IMG/VR virus record: IMGVR_UViG_2974670102_000001
Coordinates: 96,001-160,000 of that record
From: a virus
Lineage: Duplodnaviria > Caudoviricetes
Length of the DNA stretch: 64,000 nt
Direction: 5' to 3' (one strand)
Below are positions 19,073 to 25,021 of this stretch, piece after piece. Position 1 is the stretch's first letter; each line of letters begins with the position of its first letter. Position numbers and translations under genes: made by a program. The notes beneath the pieces were generated by a model. That model saw nothing but the letters and a program-made list of their open reading frames with translations, did no database searches and was not told the origin of the DNA.

Positions 19073-19483
19073 ATGGGTCTGGAATACTACGCACTGAACC
19101 ACGCACGCGCCGAAGCCGTGTCGTTGGGTCGCCTCGGCTTTCGCTTCGACGCGTTGCTGAACGTGACGGACCAAGCGGAGTTCGAGCGTGCGTGTTTCGA
19201 ATCGCTGGTCGCGTCCGGTTTCGACTATGCACGCGCTGCCGAGTTCGCACACGACTTCTACGATTTCGGGGCCGACGAAATATGGAACGACGGACAGGAC
19301 GTGTACGAATATTTCTCGTGCTACCGCGTGGTCGACGCGCTCGACCACGAAGAGATCGGGAGCAAGCTCGGTGACTACTTCGTGCGGTCCGGTATGCTTC
19401 CGGTCGAGGCCCTGAGTCTGCGTCACCCGCGCGTGCAGATTGTGCTGGGCCGAGCCAAGATCACGCAACCCAATTTGAATTGA
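19073..19483 (+). CDS. Hypothetical protein
   Basis: MGLEYYALNH..., GGAGG RBS. Confidence 0.7.
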   Translation: MGLEYYALNHARAEAVSLGRLGFRFDALLNVTDQAEFERACFESLVASGFDYARAAEFAHDFYDFGADEIWNDGQDVYEYFSCYRVVDALDHEEIGSKLGDYFVRSGMLPVEALSLRHPRVQIVLGRAKITQPNLN

Positions 19484-19487
19484 CCTG

Positions 19488-19516
19488 TTGACGGTGTAGT
19501 AAAGACAGCGTATAGT
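19488..19516 (+). promoter_or_regulatory. Sigma70 promoter driving the tRNA island
   Basis: TTGACG-17 nt-TATAGT, 9 nt before the first tRNA. Confidence 0.75.
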
Positions 19517-19525
19517 TCAGGACTC

Positions 19526-19602
19526 GGGCGGTTAGCTCAGGGGTTAGCAGCGTTCGGCTCATAACCGAGGGGTCGCGGGTTCGAATCCCGCACCGCCCAC
19601 CA
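19526..19602 (+). tRNA. tRNA-Met or Ile2 (CAT)
   Basis: GGGCGGT/ACCGCCC acceptor, loop CTCATAA, TTCGAAT, CCA. Confidence 0.9.
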
Positions 19603-19658
19603 CACAGAATAGGAGGCAATCATGAGTAGATTCTAGTGAACCAACTGGAGGTGTTCTC

Positions 19659-19946
19659 ATGAAAGCAAAAGCGTTTTACCATCGTGTTTGTAACTACGGC
19701 CCGGGCGGCTACCACTGCCCGTGCTGTGGTCCCGCACCGAGCATGCGTCGTAAGGAGCGTCAGCAACAACGACGCAAGTTCCATCGACTGCTTGACGTTC
19801 TGGACAAGTTTGACACCGAAGTCGAAATCGAATACGACAACCTCGTGCTCAACGATTTCGACGACGAGCGTCACGACTACTACAACGGCTGGGGCGGTGA
19901 TCCCAGCCTGCACGATGAGTGGAAGGATTGGAAGAAGGCAGCTTGA
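19659..19946 (+). CDS. Small protein with GPGGxxCPCC motif, basic then acidic
   Basis: 95 aa, GGAGG RBS. Confidence 0.7.
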   Translation: MKAKAFYHRVCNYGPGGYHCPCCGPAPSMRRKERQQQRRKFHRLLDVLDKFDTEVEIEYDNLVLNDFDDERHDYYNGWGGDPSLHDEWKDWKKAA

Positions 19947-20010
19947 CCGTACTGCACCGCAAAGCCTTAGATGCGGTGTGCCGCGAGAACGTGAGCGGTG
20001 CAGTGCACCT

Positions 20011-20096
20011 GCCCGGGTGGCGGAATTGCTAGACGCGACGGACTCAAAATCCGTTGGCCCTAGGCCGTGTGGGTTGGAGTCCCACCCCGGGCACCA
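20011..20096 (+). tRNA. tRNA-Leu (CAA)
   Basis: GCCCGGG acceptor, ACGGA-CTCAAAA-TCCGT, variable arm, CCA; atypical T-loop TTGGAGT. Confidence 0.85.
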
Positions 20097-20098
20097 TC

Positions 20099-20123
20099 GC
20101 GAGGGTGGCGAAATTGGTAGACG
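20099..20123 (+). pseudogene. 5' fragment of an interrupted tRNA-Leu-type gene
   Basis: GCGAGGG-TG-GCGAAATTGGTAGACG; acceptor strand pairs with 21300-21306. Confidence 0.8.
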
Positions 20124-20177
20124 TGGCGAAATTGGTAATCCCCAATTTTATTTCAGTAACCAACGTGGAGAAGATTC

Positions 20178-20888
20178 ATGCTAGAACTGAAAAACGACAT
20201 GCCGATTTTGGCCAAGAAGTTGTCCGGTGTGTATGGTCACGAGATTCGTATCATCGGGCCGTACGTGGACAAGAGAAACGGGCGTAAGCTCGTGGACATA
20301 AAGGGTGCGCCCCGTTCCTCGGGAATTAACAAAACCGTGCAGCTTGCACGTGCGCGCCTAGAAGTAAAGCTTGGTCGACGCCTTGTCGATGACGAGACTG
20401 TCGACCACAAGAACAACGATTGCACGGATGACCGTCCGAGCAATCTTCAGTTGCTGACGCACGCAGAGAACTCGGCAAAGCAGACGAAGGAAACGCGTAG
20501 TCGCTCGGCTGAAGCGTCTCGCACCGCCGAGGCGCGTTCCGCTAACAGCAAACGCAATACAGGTGAGAAGAATCAAGCTGCCGTCCTTACCGATACTGAA
20601 GTGAAAAGGTTTCGCACACTTTTCAGTAAGGGTAAAATGACGGTCAAGCAAATCGAAGATGCGTCGGAGTTGACAAATCGTTCGGTTCGTAATATGCTTG
20701 ACGGCCTGTCGTACAAAACGGCAGGCGGACCGCTCCGCATAGCAGGCTCTGTTGGTCGCGCATCCTCGTTGTCAGAGAAGCACAGGCAGTACATAGCGAA
20801 TCACGCAGAACTGTCAGCCGCGCAGATTGCAGAAGAACTTGACGTGAGTAGGTATGCAGTGATACGATACCGACGCACGCTTAACTAA
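20178..20888 (+). CDS. HNH homing endonuclease with C-terminal HTH-like region
   Basis: LGRRL...ETVDHKNNDCTDDRPSNLQLLTHAEN. Confidence 0.85.
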   Translation: MLELKNDMPILAKKLSGVYGHEIRIIGPYVDKRNGRKLVDIKGAPRSSGINKTVQLARARLEVKLGRRLVDDETVDHKNNDCTDDRPSNLQLLTHAENSAKQTKETRSRSAEASRTAEARSANSKRNTGEKNQAAVLTDTEVKRFRTLFSKGKMTVKQIEDASELTNRSVRNMLDGLSYKTAGGPLRIAGSVGRASSLSEKHRQYIANHAELSAAQIAEELDVSRYAVIRYRRTLN

Positions 20889-20889
20889 C

Positions 20890-20976
20890 GGGAGTGTGCT
20901 GGAATTGGTAGACGGAACGGATTTAGATTCCGTAGGCCGCAAGGTCGTGTGGGTTCGAATCCCATCACTCCCACCA
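20890..20976 (+). tRNA. tRNA-Leu (TAG)
   Basis: GGGAGTG/CACTCCC, ACGGA-TTTAGAT-TCCGT, variable arm, CCA. Confidence 0.9.
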
Positions 20977-21006
20977 CTACACGAAATTTTAGTTAAAGGT
21001 ATTTAA

Positions 21007-21246
21007 GTGCCGCCAAGCATCGAACAGGTAAAACTTATACTCAGATCAGCAGCATTGTCTCCGAGCAGCAGTCAGTTGTCTATTTCTGGCTTTGACGATA
21101 TCATGAAGGCAGCAGAGGAAGCCTATTGTGGAGATAGCCGAGCCATGCTCACAAACGTCCGGGAAATTGCCTTGCAGTTTCCGGACAATACGATGATGAT
21201 GACGATTTTGGCGCTGTATTCTGAATCCATGCTGAGTATGCATTAA
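21007..21246 (+). CDS. Hypothetical protein within the HNH cassette
   Basis: 79 aa, visibly lower GC, AAAGGT RBS. Confidence 0.55.
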   Translation: MPPSIEQVKLILRSAALSPSSSQLSISGFDDIMKAAEEAYCGDSRAMLTNVREIALQFPDNTMMMTILALYSESMLSMH

Positions 21247-21260
21247 GCGCAATCCCCACA

Positions 21261-21310
21261 GTCCTGCCGGTCGAAAGGCCGTGAGGGTTCGAATCCCTTT
21301 CCTCGCACCA
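21261..21310 (+). pseudogene. 3' fragment of the interrupted tRNA-Leu-type gene
   Basis: Variable arm GGTC-GAAA-GGCC, GAGGG-TTCGAAT-CCCTT, TCCTCGC-ACCA. Confidence 0.8.
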
Positions 21311-21404
21311 CTTTGGATTGTAGGCGTAAATCGAGCGGGACTTCCCCACCCACTCGATTAGGTATGGTACACCTTATAGACCGTCGCCTACAATCCAAAG
21401 TGGT
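21307..21404 (+). ncRNA. Putative structured RNA closed by a perfect 20-bp stem
   Basis: ACCACTTTGGATTGTAGGCG / CGCCTACAATCCAAAGTGGT with internal hairpins. Confidence 0.5.
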
Positions 21405-21477
21405 TGTGGTAAAGATGTAGTGTGCTTTGCCTTTGAAGCGCGGGCGCTGTGGTTCTCAGGCCACGACAGCGCCCAAC

Positions 21478-21553
21478 GCCGGTTTAGCTCAGTTGGTAGA
21501 GCAGCGCCCTTGTAAAGCGCAGGTCACGGGTTCGAGCCCTGTAACCGGCACCA
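21478..21553 (+). tRNA. tRNA-Thr (TGT)
   Basis: GCCGGTT/AACCGGC, loop CTTGTAA, CCA. Confidence 0.9.
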
Positions 21554-21577
21554 CTAAACAATAACAACGAGGTTGTG

Positions 21578-21916
21578 ATGAATACGCATGAGGCTTACGA
21601 GATCGTCGATAGACTGACGCCGGTATCGGTCAGGAACCTCGAAGACGCGTACGTACGGTTCATGGAAATGGCGCTTCTGGTCGATCCACACCCGGAGACT
21701 GAAGACCGGGCCACACGGGATCGTGAGACATACACTGAATTCCTGCTACCGCCCGACGAGAACGGCAATCCCGTGATTTCGGTCCCGGGCATGCACCAGT
21801 TTCTGTCCAAGATCACGGGCCATCCACTACAAACCTGCGTAGCCTTCGACTATGTTGACTTCCATCGCGTGCACGGCACGACGGTAGAGGACGCGGAACT
21901 CGCTGGCTACGTTTAA
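21578..21916 (+). CDS. Hypothetical protein
   Basis: GAGG RBS. Confidence 0.7.
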   Translation: MNTHEAYEIVDRLTPVSVRNLEDAYVRFMEMALLVDPHPETEDRATRDRETYTEFLLPPDENGNPVISVPGMHQFLSKITGHPLQTCVAFDYVDFHRVHGTTVEDAELAGYV

Positions 21917-21925
21917 GGACGGACC

Positions 21926-22138
21926 ATGGAAGAAGACGCATACAGGTTCAGTGTGGCAGCGCTCAAAAGCGAGTACGACGCTGAACTGCTCGAACTGCGC
22001 AAGACAGTGCTTGAAGGTCGCGGTGACGTTGCTGGGTTTATCAAACTCAAGGAGTCGCTTGACTCAAGGCTGAAGGACCGCGTTAGCGCGGTTACTGGCG
22101 CACGCAGTCAAACACAGAACAAGTTGCTGTACAACTGA
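21926..22138 (+). CDS. Hypothetical protein
   Basis: 70 aa, AAGGA RBS. Confidence 0.65.
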   Translation: MEEDAYRFSVAALKSEYDAELLELRKTVLEGRGDVAGFIKLKESLDSRLKDRVSAVTGARSQTQNKLLYN

Positions 22139-22144
22139 ACAAGA

Positions 22145-22221
22145 CTCCGCTTAGCTCAGCCCGGTAGAGTACGTGATTTGGGATCACGGGGTCGCAGGTT
22201 CAAATCCTGTAGCGGAGACCA
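22145..22221 (+). tRNA. tRNA-Pro (TGG)
   Basis: CTCCGCT/AGCGGAG, CGTGA-TTTGGGA-TCACG, CCA. Confidence 0.9.
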
Positions 22222-22239
22222 CACAACATAGGAGGTGTC

Positions 22240-22590
22240 TTGGAAACCACTTACGACTACAGCCTTACGTTCGACCTGACTGACATCATCGTGTTCGTTC
22301 TGATCGCGATCATGATCAAGATGGTCATCGACATCGTGCGTGAGCGCATGCGAATACGCAGGCTCCGACGCGACATGGGGGCAAACGGCAATCTTCCGTG
22401 CATCACGATCTCGGGTAACGACGATGTGTCGATCTCGGGTCTTGTGTACGAAGGGCGGCCCATCCCCTCGGTCGATATCAAGAACAAAGCGCTGTTCGTC
22501 GACGGTCAGTTCAAGCGCCGCCTCGCCCGCAACAGCCGTGTCTACAACCGTGGCATCGGAATCTTCGCGGACGGCAAGTACATGGGGTAA
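22240..22590 (+). CDS. Membrane-anchored hypothetical protein
   Basis: One TM segment (IIVFVLIAIMI), AGGAGG RBS. Confidence 0.7.
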   Translation: METTYDYSLTFDLTDIIVFVLIAIMIKMVIDIVRERMRIRRLRRDMGANGNLPCITISGNDDVSISGLVYEGRPIPSVDIKNKALFVDGQFKRRLARNSRVYNRGIGIFADGKYMG

Positions 22591-22594
22591 TACC

Positions 22595-23059
22595 ATGCGC
22601 AGTATCTTTCACATTTCGGTCGGCTCCGATAACTGGAACCCGACCGAGGACGAACTTGCGGGCATCGTCCGCAAGTTCAAAGAACTGGAAGCAAAGCAGG
22701 GTCAGCGTCAACAGCTTCCCGATACCCGCAAGATCATCCACATCAGTGTGGGTGCTGAGGATTGGACGCCTACCGCAGACGAACTGTTGGCCATCGTCAA
22801 TCAGTTCCAGTATGCAGACCTCGATCCGCTCGGTGGGTGGATTGCGACGCGTCACGGTATCAAAGTCACTGACATCGAGACCGCCGCACAGCCCACGCTG
22901 GTGGTGAACGGCACGACCCACGAAAGCGAGGCTCGTGCTTCGCTACGTCAGGACTCCATCGACCGGCTTGAGGCCATCCGCGAAAACCTGCGTACGTTCA
23001 AGCTGAGCACGCTCGATGTCGACACACTGATCAATCGGTTGTCGACGTATCAACTTTAA
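22595..23059 (+). CDS. Portal clip-segment paralog (tandem repeat), 154 aa
   Basis: HISVGAEDWTPTADELLAIVNQFQYADLDPLGGWIATRHGIKVTDI matches portal HLTAGDDKWTPTGEELNALVRTFQQAEYDPLGGWVSTRNAVQAVDI. Confidence 0.8.
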   Translation: MRSIFHISVGSDNWNPTEDELAGIVRKFKELEAKQGQRQQLPDTRKIIHISVGAEDWTPTADELLAIVNQFQYADLDPLGGWIATRHGIKVTDIETAAQPTLVVNGTTHESEARASLRQDSIDRLEAIRENLRTFKLSTLDVDTLINRLSTYQL

Positions 23060-23080
23060 CCGAAAAGCTTAGGACAACAA

Positions 23081-23512
23081 ATGAAACAACTCAACACGCA
23101 ACGCCGCTTCGAATGCCTGACACCGGAAGGTACATGGGTCTCCGTGCACTGGGAGCAACTGGAACCGGGCGACATGATCCGCCTCCTGCCCGCTGTCGGC
23201 ATCACCGAGGACGTTCCGCCGACCGACGTATTCGTCGTCATGGACACGCCTACCGTGAACGTGCGTTCGGTGAACGAAATCCGTGCCGAACAAGCAGCCG
23301 CAGCGCAGCGTGAAGCGCTGGCCAACACGGAAGGTGTCGATGCTATCCAAGCAGCGCAGCGCGATATCGACGCAGCCGTCGAGCAGATGAAGCCGGTAAC
23401 AGAGGCCGTGGCAAAGGTGGCGCACGCAGTAAAGGCCAAGAAGACGCCGAGCCCGAAGGTTCCGGCACCGGCACGCAAGCCGCGCACGCGCAAGGTCGCG
23501 ACGCCGAAGTAA
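23081..23512 (+). CDS. Hypothetical protein with basic C-terminal tail
   Basis: 143 aa, AGGA RBS. Confidence 0.7.
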   Translation: MKQLNTQRRFECLTPEGTWVSVHWEQLEPGDMIRLLPAVGITEDVPPTDVFVVMDTPTVNVRSVNEIRAEQAAAAQREALANTEGVDAIQAAQRDIDAAVEQMKPVTEAVAKVAHAVKAKKTPSPKVPAPARKPRTRKVATPK

Positions 23513-23521
23513 TGGCCGTGT

Positions 23522-23529
23522 AGTAAATA
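23522..23529 (+). promoter_or_regulatory. AGTAAATA motif
   Basis: Intergenic, upstream of tRNA-Tyr. Confidence 0.65.
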
Positions 23530-23624
23530 GGTTGGGTGAGCGCGGAAACGCAATCCCCAATTTGAGTTGTACAGAAAACTAGTGCTGGTTGCCGGATGCA
23601 GTTGTTACCCGGAACAGCACACGC

Positions 23625-23714
23625 GGATGGGTGCCCGAGTGGCTAAAGGGGGCAGACTGTAAATCTGCCGGGCCTCAGTGTCCTACGTTGGTTCGAATCC
23701 AACCTCATCCACCA
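23625..23714 (+). tRNA. tRNA-Tyr (GTA)
   Basis: GCAGA-CTGTAAA-TCTGC, long variable arm, CCA. Confidence 0.9.
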
Positions 23715-23767
23715 GAACATAAGCAGGAGCCCTGAGCATCAGGGCATCAGGGCAACAAGGAAAAGCA

Positions 23768-24049
23768 ATGCCGATTAAGCCGCTGTATGACAAGGTGGTG
23801 GTGCGTACCACCGACACAGACCGTACGACTGTAGGGGGCATCGTGATCCCCGCTGCTTCGCTCAAGGCGAATCAGGCTGTCGTGGTCGCTGTCGGTGACG
23901 GCCACCTTATGCAAGACGGTACGCTTCGACCGCTGTCCGTGAAGGCAGGCGACGTTGTGTACCTCTCGCATGAAGGCTCCGAGATCGAAGTCAACGGTGA
24001 AAAGCTTCGCGTCTTCATCGAAGGCGATCTGATAGGAGTCCTCAACTAA
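23768..24049 (+). CDS. groES: Co-chaperonin GroES
   Basis: IKPLYDKVVV...TVGGIVIP...VVAVGDG...VKAGDVV. Confidence 0.92.
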   Translation: MPIKPLYDKVVVRTTDTDRTTVGGIVIPAASLKANQAVVVAVGDGHLMQDGTLRPLSVKAGDVVYLSHEGSEIEVNGEKLRVFIEGDLIGVLN

Positions 24050-24058
24050 GCAGTACAT

Positions 24059-24135
24059 TCCCCGTGAGCAAGCTAGGCGACTGCACCGGACTGTTAATCC
24101 GGCATTGCGTGGTTCGAATCCACGACGGGGAGCCA
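24059..24135 (+). tRNA. tRNA-Asn (GTT)
   Basis: TCCCCGT/ACGGGGA, CCGGA-CTGTTAA-TCCGG, GCCA. Confidence 0.88.
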
Positions 24136-24139
24136 ATCA

Positions 24140-24242
24140 TGAATAGGTCATGAGTAAGGCAGATCACTCAATCCGGAAACTCAAAAGGTAATCCGGGTAG
24201 CAATGAGCATCCTGTAAGCCGAGACGATGATTGACTTATTCA
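24140..24242 (+). ncRNA. Putative structured spacer RNA
   Basis: 11-bp closing stem TGAATAGGTCA/TGACTTATTCA; fills the Asn-Phe spacer. Confidence 0.4.
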
Positions 24243-24244
24243 GA

Positions 24245-24320
24245 GCGCGGGTAGCTCAGTTGGTAGAGCACCGGACTGAAAATCCGGGTGTCGCTGGTTC
24301 GAGTCCAGCCCTGCGCACCA
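24245..24320 (+). tRNA. tRNA-Phe (GAA)
   Basis: CCGGA-CTGAAAA-TCCGG, canonical D and T arms, CCA. Confidence 0.92.
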
Positions 24321-24326
24321 GCGTTG

Positions 24327-24436
24327 TGATCGAGTGAAAATCGTAGGAAGGGGCCGATTACCCTGACCGCAATCTGTAGGTGGACCGGCTGGCCCTCATC
24401 CTGCTAGTGTAGATTTTTCCCATGTGGTTTCGATCA
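24327..24436 (+). ncRNA. Putative rod-like structured RNA
   Basis: Nested stems TGATCGA/TCGATCA, GAAAATC/GATTTTT, GTAGGA/TCCTGC, GGGCC/GGCCC. Confidence 0.4.
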
Positions 24437-24539
24437 ACTAATCATTGTGTGGTTGTAGCGCACTAAATCAGACGGCCGGGCTCCGGAGCCCGCGTACCAT
24501 ACCACCCCGGATGGAAACCGTTGAATATTCCGGGTCGAT

Positions 24540-24616
24540 AGGGGTGTAGCCAAGTTGGTTAAGGCAACGGATTTTGATTCCGTCATGCGTAGGTTCGAAT
24601 CCTACCGCCCCTTCCA
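24540..24616 (+). tRNA. tRNA-Gln (TTG)
   Basis: AGGGGTG/CGCCCCT, ACGGA-TTTTGAT-TCCGT, CCA. Confidence 0.9.
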
Positions 24617-24694
24617 GAACACGCAGTACTGCTGCCTCCCCCTGCGGTGAAATCCCGAAGGACTTGCGGGCAGCATCGAATAATCAGGACTCCA

Positions 24695-25021
24695 ATGAAC
24701 GCAATCAAGAACGCGACCGCAACAACCTTCGACGCAGATGTCATGAAGGGTGAAGGTCTCATCCTCGTAGACTTCTGGGCACCGTGGTGCGGCCCGTGCA
24801 AGATGCTGGCTCCGACACTGGACAAGATCGCACAAGAGCGCGACGACCTCCAGATCGTGAAGGTCAACGTCGACGAGGAATCCGAGAACGAAGTCGCAAA
24901 GACGTTCGGAGTCCGTGGTATTCCGTCACTCATGCTCGTGCGAAACGGTGCAGTGATCGCGCAACGCGCTGGAGCACTGGCCAAGTCGCAACTGGAAGCA
25001 TGGATCGACGCGAACAAGTAA
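24695..25021 (+). CDS. trxA: Thioredoxin
   Basis: VDFWAPWCGPCK...GVRGIP. Confidence 0.93.
   Translation: MNAIKNATATTFDADVMKGEGLILVDFWAPWCGPCKMLAPTLDKIAQERDDLQIVKVNVDEESENEVAKTFGVRGIPSLMLVRNGAVIAQRAGALAKSQLEAWIDANK

Follow-up and report, generated by a model that had tools for sequence, protein, structure and literature searches.

A tRNA-Leu gene of Burkholderia phage BcepSauron split around an HNH endonuclease gene and a whole tRNA-Leu: a candidate homing cassette

In the giant Burkholderia phage BcepSauron, a tRNA-Leu gene lies in two pieces around an insert that holds an HNH endonuclease gene, a whole tRNA-Leu(TAG) gene and an open reading frame of 79 codons (ORF79). The locus is part of a stretch of 64,000 nucleotides (IMG/VR record IMGVR_UViG_2974670102_000001, positions 96,001 to 160,000), which was analysed as a whole and is called the window here; positions refer to it, and the parts of the locus given with coordinates below, from the promoter to the 3' tRNA fragment, lie on the plus strand. 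Judged from sequence comparisons, the arrangement is probably a homing-endonuclease cassette residing in the anticodon arm of its target, a tRNA-Leu(NAG) gene, and accompanied by a substitute tRNA. A reading of the sequence alone had proposed a selfish cassette that breaks its target tRNA while bringing its own, and the parts of this proposal that can be tested in sequence, namely the foreign look of the insert, the matching of the two halves, the tie to leucine tRNAs and the recurrence in other phages, support it.

The broken tRNA-Leu gene and its insert

All nine tRNA genes of BcepSauron are found within positions 19526-24616 of the window, with the HNH gene among them. A putative sigma-70-like promoter (TTGACG-17-TATAGT, 19488..19516, 10/12 consensus matches) stands in front of tRNA-Met, and the tRNA operon in which the cassette lies likely begins there; six promoter-like sites were found, as compared to 1.7 expected in shuffled sequences. 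The resident tRNA-Leu(CAA) gene (20011..20096, called by ARAGORN and by Rfam at 54.4 bits) is intact, has the anticodon stem ACGGA/TCCGT and is separated from the broken gene downstream by only 2 nt.

The orphan 5' fragment (20099..20123) was present where the sequence-only reading had placed it and reads GCGAGGG TG GCG AAATTGGTAGA CG, which comprises the acceptor strand GCGAGGG, U8 and G9, and the D arm as far as the 3' strand of its stem. It matches positions 3-26 of the nhmmer tRNA-Leu profile and is identical over 25 nt to the intact tRNA-Leu(TAG) genes of six IMG/VR contigs (L001-L006), which served as sequence reference only. The orphan 3' fragment (21259..21310) matches profile positions 42-86 (E = 2.3e-6) and aligns to the same intact relatives. 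Its order is AG-T from the end of the anticodon loop, CCTG as the anticodon stem 3' strand, the long variable arm (GGTC GAAA GGCC), the T arm (AGGG TTCGAAT CCCT), the acceptor strand TCCTCGC, the discriminator A and CCA, ending at 21310. This half and its end were as first described; its start is probably at about 21259, at least two bases ahead of the 21261 originally given.

The acceptor strands of the halves form six Watson-Crick pairs and one G-U pair in the sole possible register, in agreement with the complementarity claimed earlier; by our estimate such pairing would arise by chance with a probability of ~3e-4. The anticodon stem of the broken gene and its relatives is of the type CCAGR/YCTGG. 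That both fragments match the same tRNA-Leu family and that their acceptor strands pair supports the view that they are parts of one tRNA-Leu of the NAG type. Neither ARAGORN nor Rfam calls the halves as tRNA, and joining them in silico gives no tRNA because ca. 10 nt are missing. The lost segment is the 5' strand of the anticodon stem with the first half of the loop, so the anticodon region is gone as the initial reading had it, and the split gene contains no complete cloverleaf with an anticodon arm.

Between the halves, the HNH gene (20178..20888) encodes a protein of 236 amino acids in an intact reading frame, with a GGAG ribosome-binding site 9 nt upstream and a stop codon 1 nt ahead of the inner tRNA. 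The protein matches PF13392 (HNH_3) at 29.6 bits (cut-off 24.8) and carries a C-terminal double HTH, of which one unit matches PF08279 (HTH_11) at 25.7 bits (cut-off 25) and the second is weaker; the nuclease gene expected at this place is thus confirmed by its domains. An alignment of seven family members showed that D76, H77, N89 and N98 are invariant. The catalytic domain is HNH_3, and a GIY-YIG domain is absent from the protein. A fold model (pLDDT 70.6) contains two helical HTH units and gave weak Foldseek matches only, to bipartite HTH domains of the paired/Tc3 type, and a sequence search of the PDB returned no match to any solved structure. The gene occurs once in the BcepSauron genome.

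The inner tRNA-Leu(TAG) (20890..20976) is intact, with a complete cloverleaf, a long variable arm, A73 and CCA, and is called by ARAGORN as Leu(tag) and by Rfam (53.8 bits versus 29); a promoter-like site (20839-20868) lies directly upstream. It is also divergent in sequence, as had been noted: it differs from the orphan 5' fragment at 5/25 positions and is 82% identical to the 3' fragment, and its anticodon stem ACGGA/TCCGT is unlike the stem of the CCAGR/YCTGG type seen in the broken gene and its relatives. Exact-pattern scans of IMG/VR with the inner tRNA and with the 3' half gave no match. The anticodon stem is shared with the resident tRNA-Leu(CAA), so the inner tRNA could be native to the phage lineage and not imported. 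ORF79 (21007..21246; GTG start, 47% G+C) was confirmed as an open frame; it has no Pfam family and no homolog among 5.8 billion proteins, and it may be donor DNA that was carried along.

At the left junction, a 15-nt duplication had been described; the repeat is exact, but its real extent is an 18-nt tandem unit (GTGGCGAAATTGGTAGAC / GTGGCGAAATTGGTAATC, 20105..20140) with copies at 20105-20122 and 20123-20140, the second being a piece of the D arm that ends after GGTA. The 15-mer has no other occurrence in the genome, and we infer that the duplication is a repair scar or a donor homology arm. The direct repeat of 8 nt at the two cassette ends (AATCCCCA, 20137..20144 and 21251..21258) is likewise present, and these are two of only three forward copies in 262 kb. 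About ten other 8-mers are repeated within the same 1.6 kb, so that only the position of the pair is notable, with a chance probability of roughly 1% by our estimate. The end repeat is not accounted for by standard homing. We did not adopt an interpretation as target-site duplication, since repeats of 8 nt are frequent over such distances and there is no transposase. A hairpin at 21307-21404 was considered as a repeated mobile element and rejected, as it is unique in the genome.

The insert has a G+C content of 50.5%, as compared to 58.1% for the genome, and the cassette looks acquired when BcepSauron is compared with its sister phage BcepSaruman (MK552140, 263,735 bp, 93% identical). All five flanking proteins compared, the neighbours of 95, 145, 70 and 112 amino acids and the DNA polymerase, each have a BcepSaruman twin of at least 90% identity. 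The protein clusters of HNH and ORF79 consist of the BcepSauron copy alone and have no counterpart in the BcepSaruman protein set, a comparison at the level of protein clusters that a pseudogenised or uncalled copy would escape. Outside this pair, no relative of a flanking protein was found in the viral contig collection and no near matches among GenBank phages. The phages phiRSL1 and BCSR5 are distant relatives (~50% DNA polymerase identity), and the region beside the BCSR5 polymerase and helicase has no comparable tRNA cluster.

Related arrangements in other phages

The HNH family was examined in 46 non-redundant relatives (clusters) of the window protein, from many unrelated phage contigs; in 185,579 prokaryote genomes it hardly occurs. 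The tRNA genes that abut these relatives are leucine tRNAs in 26/40 cases versus 12/87 in the background (Fisher p = 1.3e-8), and orphan tRNA-Leu-like fragments lie near the HNH gene in 15 of the 46 clusters. In at least six independent loci, which involve two nuclease families, an endonuclease gene is flanked on both sides by matched broken halves. What lies between the halves varies: HNH alone, HNH with a replacement 5' half, or HNH with a whole inner tRNA.

The closest full-length metagenomic relative is the HNH protein of contig L014 (47% identity). Its gene interrupts a tRNA-Leu(GAG) that is perfect in every other respect, the junction lying exactly at positions 31/32, and taking out the 623 nt restores a tRNA that is called by ARAGORN. 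A second cassette on L014 has the same layout with a GIY-YIG nuclease (PF22945, 4.8e-8) instead of HNH, for which no close relatives were found in IMG/VR. Matched halves occur in both L014 cassettes and in L015, L025 and L035. The order of the window (5' fragment, HNH, whole inner tRNA, 3' fragment) recurs in L015 and L025, with acceptor pairing of 7/7 and 6+1, respectively. In L017, an orphan 5' half is followed by HNH and then by a tRNA that matches the orphan with perfect pairing of its 3' acceptor strand and has a compensatory change in the D stem of its own 5' half. A whole inner tRNA or a replacement 5' half is thus found in the window, L015, L025, the second cassette of L014 and L017. 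The broken gene of L027 is apparently TAG and its inner tRNA is TAA, which means that replacement is not universal.

Searches for ribozymes (Intron_gpI or other, E ≤ 1) found none at 19400-24800 of the window and none within the inserts of L014, L015, L017, L025, L035 and L039. A group I intron was rejected on this ground, and the joined exons of the window form no tRNA.

Proposed mechanism and alternative explanations

According to the preferred explanation, the HNH gene would be transcribed together with the tRNA operon, and when a relative with an uninterrupted copy of the gene infects the same cell, the nuclease would nick or cut that copy near positions 31/32. Repair would then copy the cassette from the BcepSauron allele, with the 5' and 3' tRNA fragments and their flanks as homology arms. 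The cassette tRNA-Leu(TAG) is proposed to escape cutting because its anticodon stem differs beside the insertion point, and it would keep CUN decoding available to the phage; the substitute would in this way cancel the cost of destroying the target. The loss of ~10 nt, the 18-nt duplication and the 8-nt end repeat may be scars of imprecise (microhomology) acquisition from a non-identical donor. As the insertion in the window is imprecise, the BcepSauron copy may no longer home cleanly.

It is unlikely that the HNH protein is a domesticated recombination driver and not purely selfish, its breaks in the tRNA region promoting duplication, exchange and amplification of tRNA genes. The phage would then gain replacement or multiplied tRNAs against host nucleases that attack anticodons or variable loops, and this activity would leave the broken tRNA and the 18-nt duplication as side products. 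SegB, which amplifies tRNA-Tyr segmentally in escaping Septu and is widely linked to tRNAs (PMC13096335), offers a model for this, and the small tandem duplication at the junction and the three BcepSauron RNA ligases for RNA repair (PMC7824862) are in line with it. Amplified repeat units are absent, however, and SegB has no isotype preference, whereas the window HNH family is Leu-biased and its gene lies inside a tRNA gene; the precise 31/32 insertion of L014, which keeps both halves, is a homing signature. The two roles are not mutually exclusive and can coexist. Quite unlikely is a remnant of illegitimate recombination, in which recombination between tandem tRNA-Leu paralogues, or their partial duplication and deletion, left the fragments and the HNH gene is a bystander that by chance resides in tRNA clusters. 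Phage tRNA clusters are prone to recombination, the junctions in the window are imprecise (~10 nt lost, 18 nt duplicated), and the common anticodon stem of the inner tRNA and the neighbouring tRNA-Leu(CAA) would fit. Such an origin is difficult to reconcile with matched halves that bracket nuclease genes of two families in at least six independent loci, with the nucleotide-exact insertion in L014, with the leucine bias (p = 1.3e-8) and with cassette proteins that are missing from the BcepSaruman protein set.

The halves could also act at the RNA level, as a split or intron-containing tRNA: they would be transcribed, freed when RNase P/Z processes the inner tRNA, and then either paired in trans or joined again (e.g. 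by the phage RtcB, Rnl1 or Rnl2) to a working or decoy tRNA. All three ligases are encoded by BcepSauron (PMC7824862), the acceptor strands of the halves still pair, and L014 combines perfect exons with an exact insert. We nevertheless consider this very unlikely, as the window lacks the anticodon stem 5' strand and half of the loop, so that its halves cannot form a decoding tRNA; the search of the inserts revealed neither a group I nor any other ribozyme, the L014 ORF occupies the entire insert and leaves no room for a ribozyme core, and exact retention of exons is what homing alone predicts. It is by the same measure highly improbable that precise, ribozyme-free HNH insertions of the L014 type are a new kind of tRNA intron or split tRNA, of which the BcepSauron halves are derivatives; if they were, the nuclease gene would be phenotypically silent with no ribozyme involved, or the halves would be anticodon-less decoys for host tRNA nucleases. 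Finally, the direct link between the halves is the 7-bp acceptor complementarity only, and a resemblance by chance would make them unrelated debris from different tRNA genes. This is extremely unlikely, given that both match the same tRNA-Leu family, that they pair in the one register possible, beside the T arm and ACCA, and that the arrangement is repeated in L014 (twice), L015, L025 and L035.

A homing cassette with a substitute tRNA would account for the tRNA fragments and 'pseudo-tRNAs' beside HNH genes in phage tRNA clusters, and the layout is found in many uncultured phages, in one locus with the unrelated GIY-YIG family. Since tRNA fragments can act as portable homology arms, it would also provide a route for tRNA genes to move between unrelated phages. 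BcepSauron and BcepSaruman are a cultured pair and open to direct tests, and nucleases that read conserved tRNA sequence are potential tools.

Comparison with known systems

The precedent for tRNA-directed homing is the free-standing homing endonuclease SegB, a GIY-YIG enzyme from the tRNA gene cluster of phages T4 and T6 (PMC2330249; PMC13096335). Like the BcepSauron HNH gene, segB is embedded in a phage tRNA cluster; further likenesses, on the proposed reading of the cassette, would be that its recognition site is in a conserved part of tRNA genes, that it spreads with neighbouring tRNA genes and that it is missing from the close relatives T2L, RB1 and RB3. SegB is a GIY-YIG enzyme encoded between genes, whereas the BcepSauron nuclease is an HNH protein encoded inside one. 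SegB reads a T-loop motif without isotype preference, unlike the Leu-biased HNH family, and neither a broken target nor a replacement copy is on record for SegB.

As a protein, the BcepSauron nuclease resembles the HNH_3 or I-HmuI-type and Mob-type enzymes (T4 MobE, PMC2790892), small phage proteins in which an HNH motif is followed by DNA-binding modules and which show presence/absence polymorphism between relatives, as the protein clusters suggest for the BcepSauron gene. I-HmuI is encoded within a group I intron that splices itself and MobE between genes, whereas the BcepSauron gene lies in a tRNA gene that has no intron. Bacterial tRNA-Leu(UAA) and further tRNA genes can contain group I introns in their anticodon loop (PMC3984707), likewise insertions in the anticodon arm, and L014 is similar to such tRNA genes in that the exons are kept exactly. 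These introns lie within the anticodon; here the insertion is at 31/32, no ribozyme was detected in the inserts searched, an ORF fills the insert and the exons in the window are incomplete.

The nrdA gene of Aeromonas phage Aeh1 is reportedly split by mobE into working pieces. This case and the 'fractured genes' with split inteins (PMC2677866) have in common with the present locus that an endonuclease gene sits directly in its target and that the cost is worked around. The products of split protein genes reassemble as protein; here the split gene encodes an RNA, and a second copy or a replacement half would make up for the loss. Integrating elements whose attP copies the 3' end of the target tRNA gene also disrupt a tRNA gene, restore its function with sequence of their own and leave an orphan tRNA fragment. 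They do so with an integrase, by site-specific recombination, and restore the 3' end, whereas here, with no integrase present, what is regained is the 5' half in L017 and the whole gene in the window.

A literature search of incomplete coverage returned no earlier description of this layout, which is apparently an undescribed way for selfish genes to occupy a target while the phage keeps the function. Homing endonuclease genes are known to spare their target by residing in self-splicing introns or inteins, by lying beside it, or by dividing it so that the protein pieces still work. For an RNA gene, the evidence suggests one more such solution, in which the nuclease gene sits directly in a conserved tRNA-Leu gene and brings along a spare, either a whole tRNA or a recoded 5' half.

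The broken tRNA-Leu gene and its insert

The Burkholderia phage BcepSauron record (262,653 bp, 58.1% G+C; the window comprises bases 96001-160000) carries all nine of its tRNA genes in one co-oriented cluster (window 19526-24616), ahead of which a sigma-70-like promoter is predicted. Sequence reading places, two bases past tRNA-Leu(CAA), the 5' piece of a broken tRNA-Leu gene, GCGAGGG TG GCG AAATTGGTAGA CG (20099-20123), directly after which GTGGCGAAATTGGTA occurs again, joined to ATCCCCA. Downstream come a GGAG ribosome-binding site, the 236-codon HNH ORF (20178-20888), a complete tRNA-Leu(TAG) that starts one base past its stop codon (20890-20976), a 79-codon ORF (21007-21246) and then GCGC AATCCCCA C AG-T CCTG C, a long variable arm, a T arm, TCCTCGC and ACCA, ending at 21310. 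All 25 nucleotides of the 5' piece match intact tRNA-Leu(TAG) genes on six IMG/VR contigs, the 3' part of which aligns with the window 3' piece. Both pieces are partial matches to the tRNA-Leu profile, and their acceptor strands form six Watson-Crick pairs and one G-U pair in the sole possible register. Neither piece is called as a tRNA by ARAGORN or Rfam, nor is a tRNA called when the pieces are joined in silico, because roughly positions 25-35 (about 10 nt) are absent. The six contig genes are identical (GCGAGGG...CCCTCGC) and in some cases lie at or near the contig end; as a guess, they may be host tRNAs at prophage boundaries.

The sequence-only reading had described two tRNA-Leu halves with complementary acceptor strands flanking an HNH gene, an intact tRNA-Leu(TAG) and a 79-codon ORF. 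The 25-nt identity, profile matches and pairing bear out the halves, the three intervening features were all read in the sequence, and the description of the locus is confirmed with small adjustments. The anticodon region, reported as missing, lacks positions ~25-35, but the 3' piece retains the anticodon-stem 3' strand and, before it, the end of the loop. The reported 15-nt duplication is present, but its true unit is an 18-nt tandem. The AATCCCCA pair does occur at both cassette ends, but only its location is notable, since about ten further 8-mers recur in the same 1.6 kb. A very stable, single-copy hairpin (21303-21410; dG -54.8 kcal/mol, z = -7.4, perfect closing stem of 20 bp) begins at the ACCA with which the orphan 3' fragment ends and is a candidate terminator, processing site or small RNA.

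The insert looks acquired. Its G+C content is 50.5% (HNH 52.7%, ORF79 47.1%), as compared to 57-58% in the two flanks and 58.1% genome-wide. In a collection of 15 billion proteins, HNH and ORF79 each form a one-member cluster holding the BcepSauron copy only. For the neighbouring proteins of 145, 95, 70 and 112 amino acids and for the DNA polymerase, the sister phage BcepSaruman (263,735 bp, 93% nucleotide identity to BcepSauron) has a counterpart of at least 90% identity in each case. No BcepSaruman homologue was found among the HNH family search matches, and the protein clusters indicate, indirectly, that the cassette proteins are absent from that phage. The BcepSauron DNA polymerase shares about 50% identity with its counterparts in Ralstonia phage phiRSL1 and Burkholderia phage BCSR5.

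The 236-codon ORF scores above threshold for HNH_3 (PF13392) and has two HTH units at the C-terminus; D76, H77, N89 and N98 are invariant in the family alignment. A PDB sequence search with the protein gave no match, and its AlphaFold model (pLDDT 70.6) showed weak matches to bipartite paired/Tc3-type DNA-binding domains. At E <= 1e-10 the profile search for relatives yielded 499 clusters, rising to 4,363 at E <= 1e-3. Among 185,579 prokaryote genomes the family has a single match, located in a 20-tRNA array directly after a UAG-anticodon tRNA.

Recurrence of the architecture among HNH relatives

The recurrence of this architecture is the main result. Loci encoding HNH relatives (55 metagenomic and 9 viral) were grouped in 46 clusters at 80% identity. 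In 24 of these, HNH has a same-strand tRNA with a Leu anticodon no more than 60 nt away, and 7 more have another tRNA at such a distance instead. Leu accounts for 26/40 of the tRNAs adjoining HNH versus 12/87 of the remaining tRNAs in the same loci (Fisher p = 1.3e-8), and orphan tRNA-Leu-like fragments occur within 150 nt of HNH in 15/46 clusters. Short UAA-anticodon tRNAs of 74-78 nt without a long variable arm, labelled Leu by anticodon only, are found beside HNH relatives in four loci (L025:1140-1216, L036, L038 and L044).

Four layouts (A-D) were distinguished among loci with HNH relatives. In layout A (L014), an HNH gene whose product is 47% identical to the window protein over its full length, with its own ribosome-binding site and a stop codon overlapping the loop, is inserted exactly between positions 31 and 32 of tRNA-Leu(GAG); removal of the 623 nt gives a tRNA called by ARAGORN. 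Layout B (L017) consists of an orphan 5' half (positions 1-31), HNH and a whole tRNA-Leu(TAG). The 3' acceptor strand of this whole tRNA forms 7/7 pairs with the orphan versus 6+1 (six Watson-Crick, one G-U) with its own 5' half, where D-stem pair 10-25 shows a compensatory change as well; the cassette therefore seems to have delivered a substitute, recoded 5' half. Layout C, in the window, L015 and L025, is composed of 5' fragment, HNH, whole inner tRNA and 3' fragment with matched acceptor strands (7/7 and 6+1), and the 5' break in L015 follows GGTAGACG, the same point as in the window. Just downstream of the L015 cassette (L015:4142-4327) are two sub-threshold matches, a 74-nt one to bacterial 23S rRNA positions 2134-2207 (49.1 bits; gathering score 50) and a RAGATH-1 hammerhead-like one (35.9 bits vs 56.3).

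In layout D (L027, L034, L035, L039/L042, L043) a 5' fragment is followed by a whole tRNA-Leu(TAA) and HNH; in L035 the final 11 nt of the broken gene remain downstream of HNH. A sigma-70-like promoter is predicted ahead of the inner tRNA in all three layout-D loci read. These near-consensus sites, e.g. TTGACA-17-TATAAT, lie immediately 5' of the inner tRNA (L027:3860-3900, L035:240-275, L039:583-612); the window has a weaker promoter-like site ahead of its inner tRNA, within the HNH 3' end (20839-20868). The L014 contig also harbors a second broken tRNA-Leu (L014:3760-4613) with 7/7 acceptor pairing, in which a 5' fragment that breaks off within the D loop is followed by a GIY-YIG ORF (PF22945), a whole tRNA-Leu(TAA) and the 3' fragment. 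Here the window layout is taken by an unrelated nuclease family.

In many loci the 3' end of the HNH ORF runs into the 5' end of the next tRNA. The ORF ends inside the 5' part of the downstream tRNA in L038, L044, L056, L058, L071, L017 and L016, and in L038 the TAA anticodon doubles as the HNH stop codon. On maturing such a tRNA, RNase P would thus also sever the nuclease transcript, which may act as an inherent check on nuclease production. Among cultured phages, remote relatives in Klebsiella KP13-16, Pseudomonas HPP-Temi and Acinetobacter KissB adjoin tRNA genes as well. The HPP-Temi jumbo phage (PP968062.1; L078:1095-1135) has an orphan 5' tRNA fragment, GCCGTTA TA GCTCAGCAGGTAGAGC A ACTAA, which stops at ~position 31, directly 5' of the start codon (ATG) of a gene annotated as HNH endonuclease. 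In the record, a small 'hypothetical protein' is assigned to the span of this fragment, and the HNH ORF 3' end overlaps tRNA-Thr.

A putative homing cassette in its own target

An intron was considered and rejected. At thresholds as loose as E <= 1, Rfam matched neither a group I intron nor any other ribozyme, be it in the window region or inside the inserts of six of the relative loci; in addition, the ORF takes up the whole L014 insert and the window exons are incomplete. BcepSauron and BcepSaruman are reported to possess RNA ligases of all three types (RtcB, Rnl1, Rnl2; PMC7824862), which bears on tRNA repair and on an RNA-level rival reading.

The split gene, the intact nuclease gene and inner tRNA, the G+C contrast, and the recurrent association with matched halves elsewhere are established. 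The reading best supported by these comparisons is that a homing-endonuclease cassette has settled in the anticodon arm of the very tRNA-Leu it targets; the selfish cassette proposed from the sequence has the support of the comparative evidence. HNH would cut or nick uninterrupted tRNA-Leu alleles near positions 31/32, and repair would copy the cassette; the tRNA fragments would supply homology arms usable even between otherwise unrelated phages. The inner tRNA would be immune to HNH: the anticodon stem is ACGGA/TCCGT in both intact BcepSauron Leu tRNAs and of the CCAGR/YCTGG type at the insertion point of the broken gene and its relatives. It would also keep decoding for the phage, in which CTA makes up 3.9% and TTG 13% of Leu codons; both are rare in the 66-67% G+C host. 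The window junctions are imprecise, with about 10 nt lost, 18 nt duplicated and an 8-nt end repeat. More speculatively, this cassette may have been captured from a non-identical donor, whose downstream tRNA and ORF79 would have been carried along.

Relation to known systems

Protein genes split by an endonuclease insertion are known, and so are integrating elements bearing a replacement tRNA end. In the part of the literature that was searchable, we found no report of an endonuclease gene that lies inside a tRNA gene with no intron around it and brings a replacement tRNA or half-tRNA. The BcepSauron locus offers a clean case in a pair of phages that are in culture, and leads to a phenomenon that is both widespread and testable. 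The closest functional precedent is SegB, a nuclease encoded in the T4 tRNA cluster whose recognition motif is conserved in tRNAs and which takes tRNA genes along with it (PMC2330249); it is widely tRNA-associated (PMC13096335). Similar to the window HNH, SegB is encoded inside a phage tRNA cluster; unlike it, SegB is an intergenic GIY-YIG nuclease without isotype preference, whereas the window HNH lies inside tRNA-Leu and belongs to a Leu-biased family.
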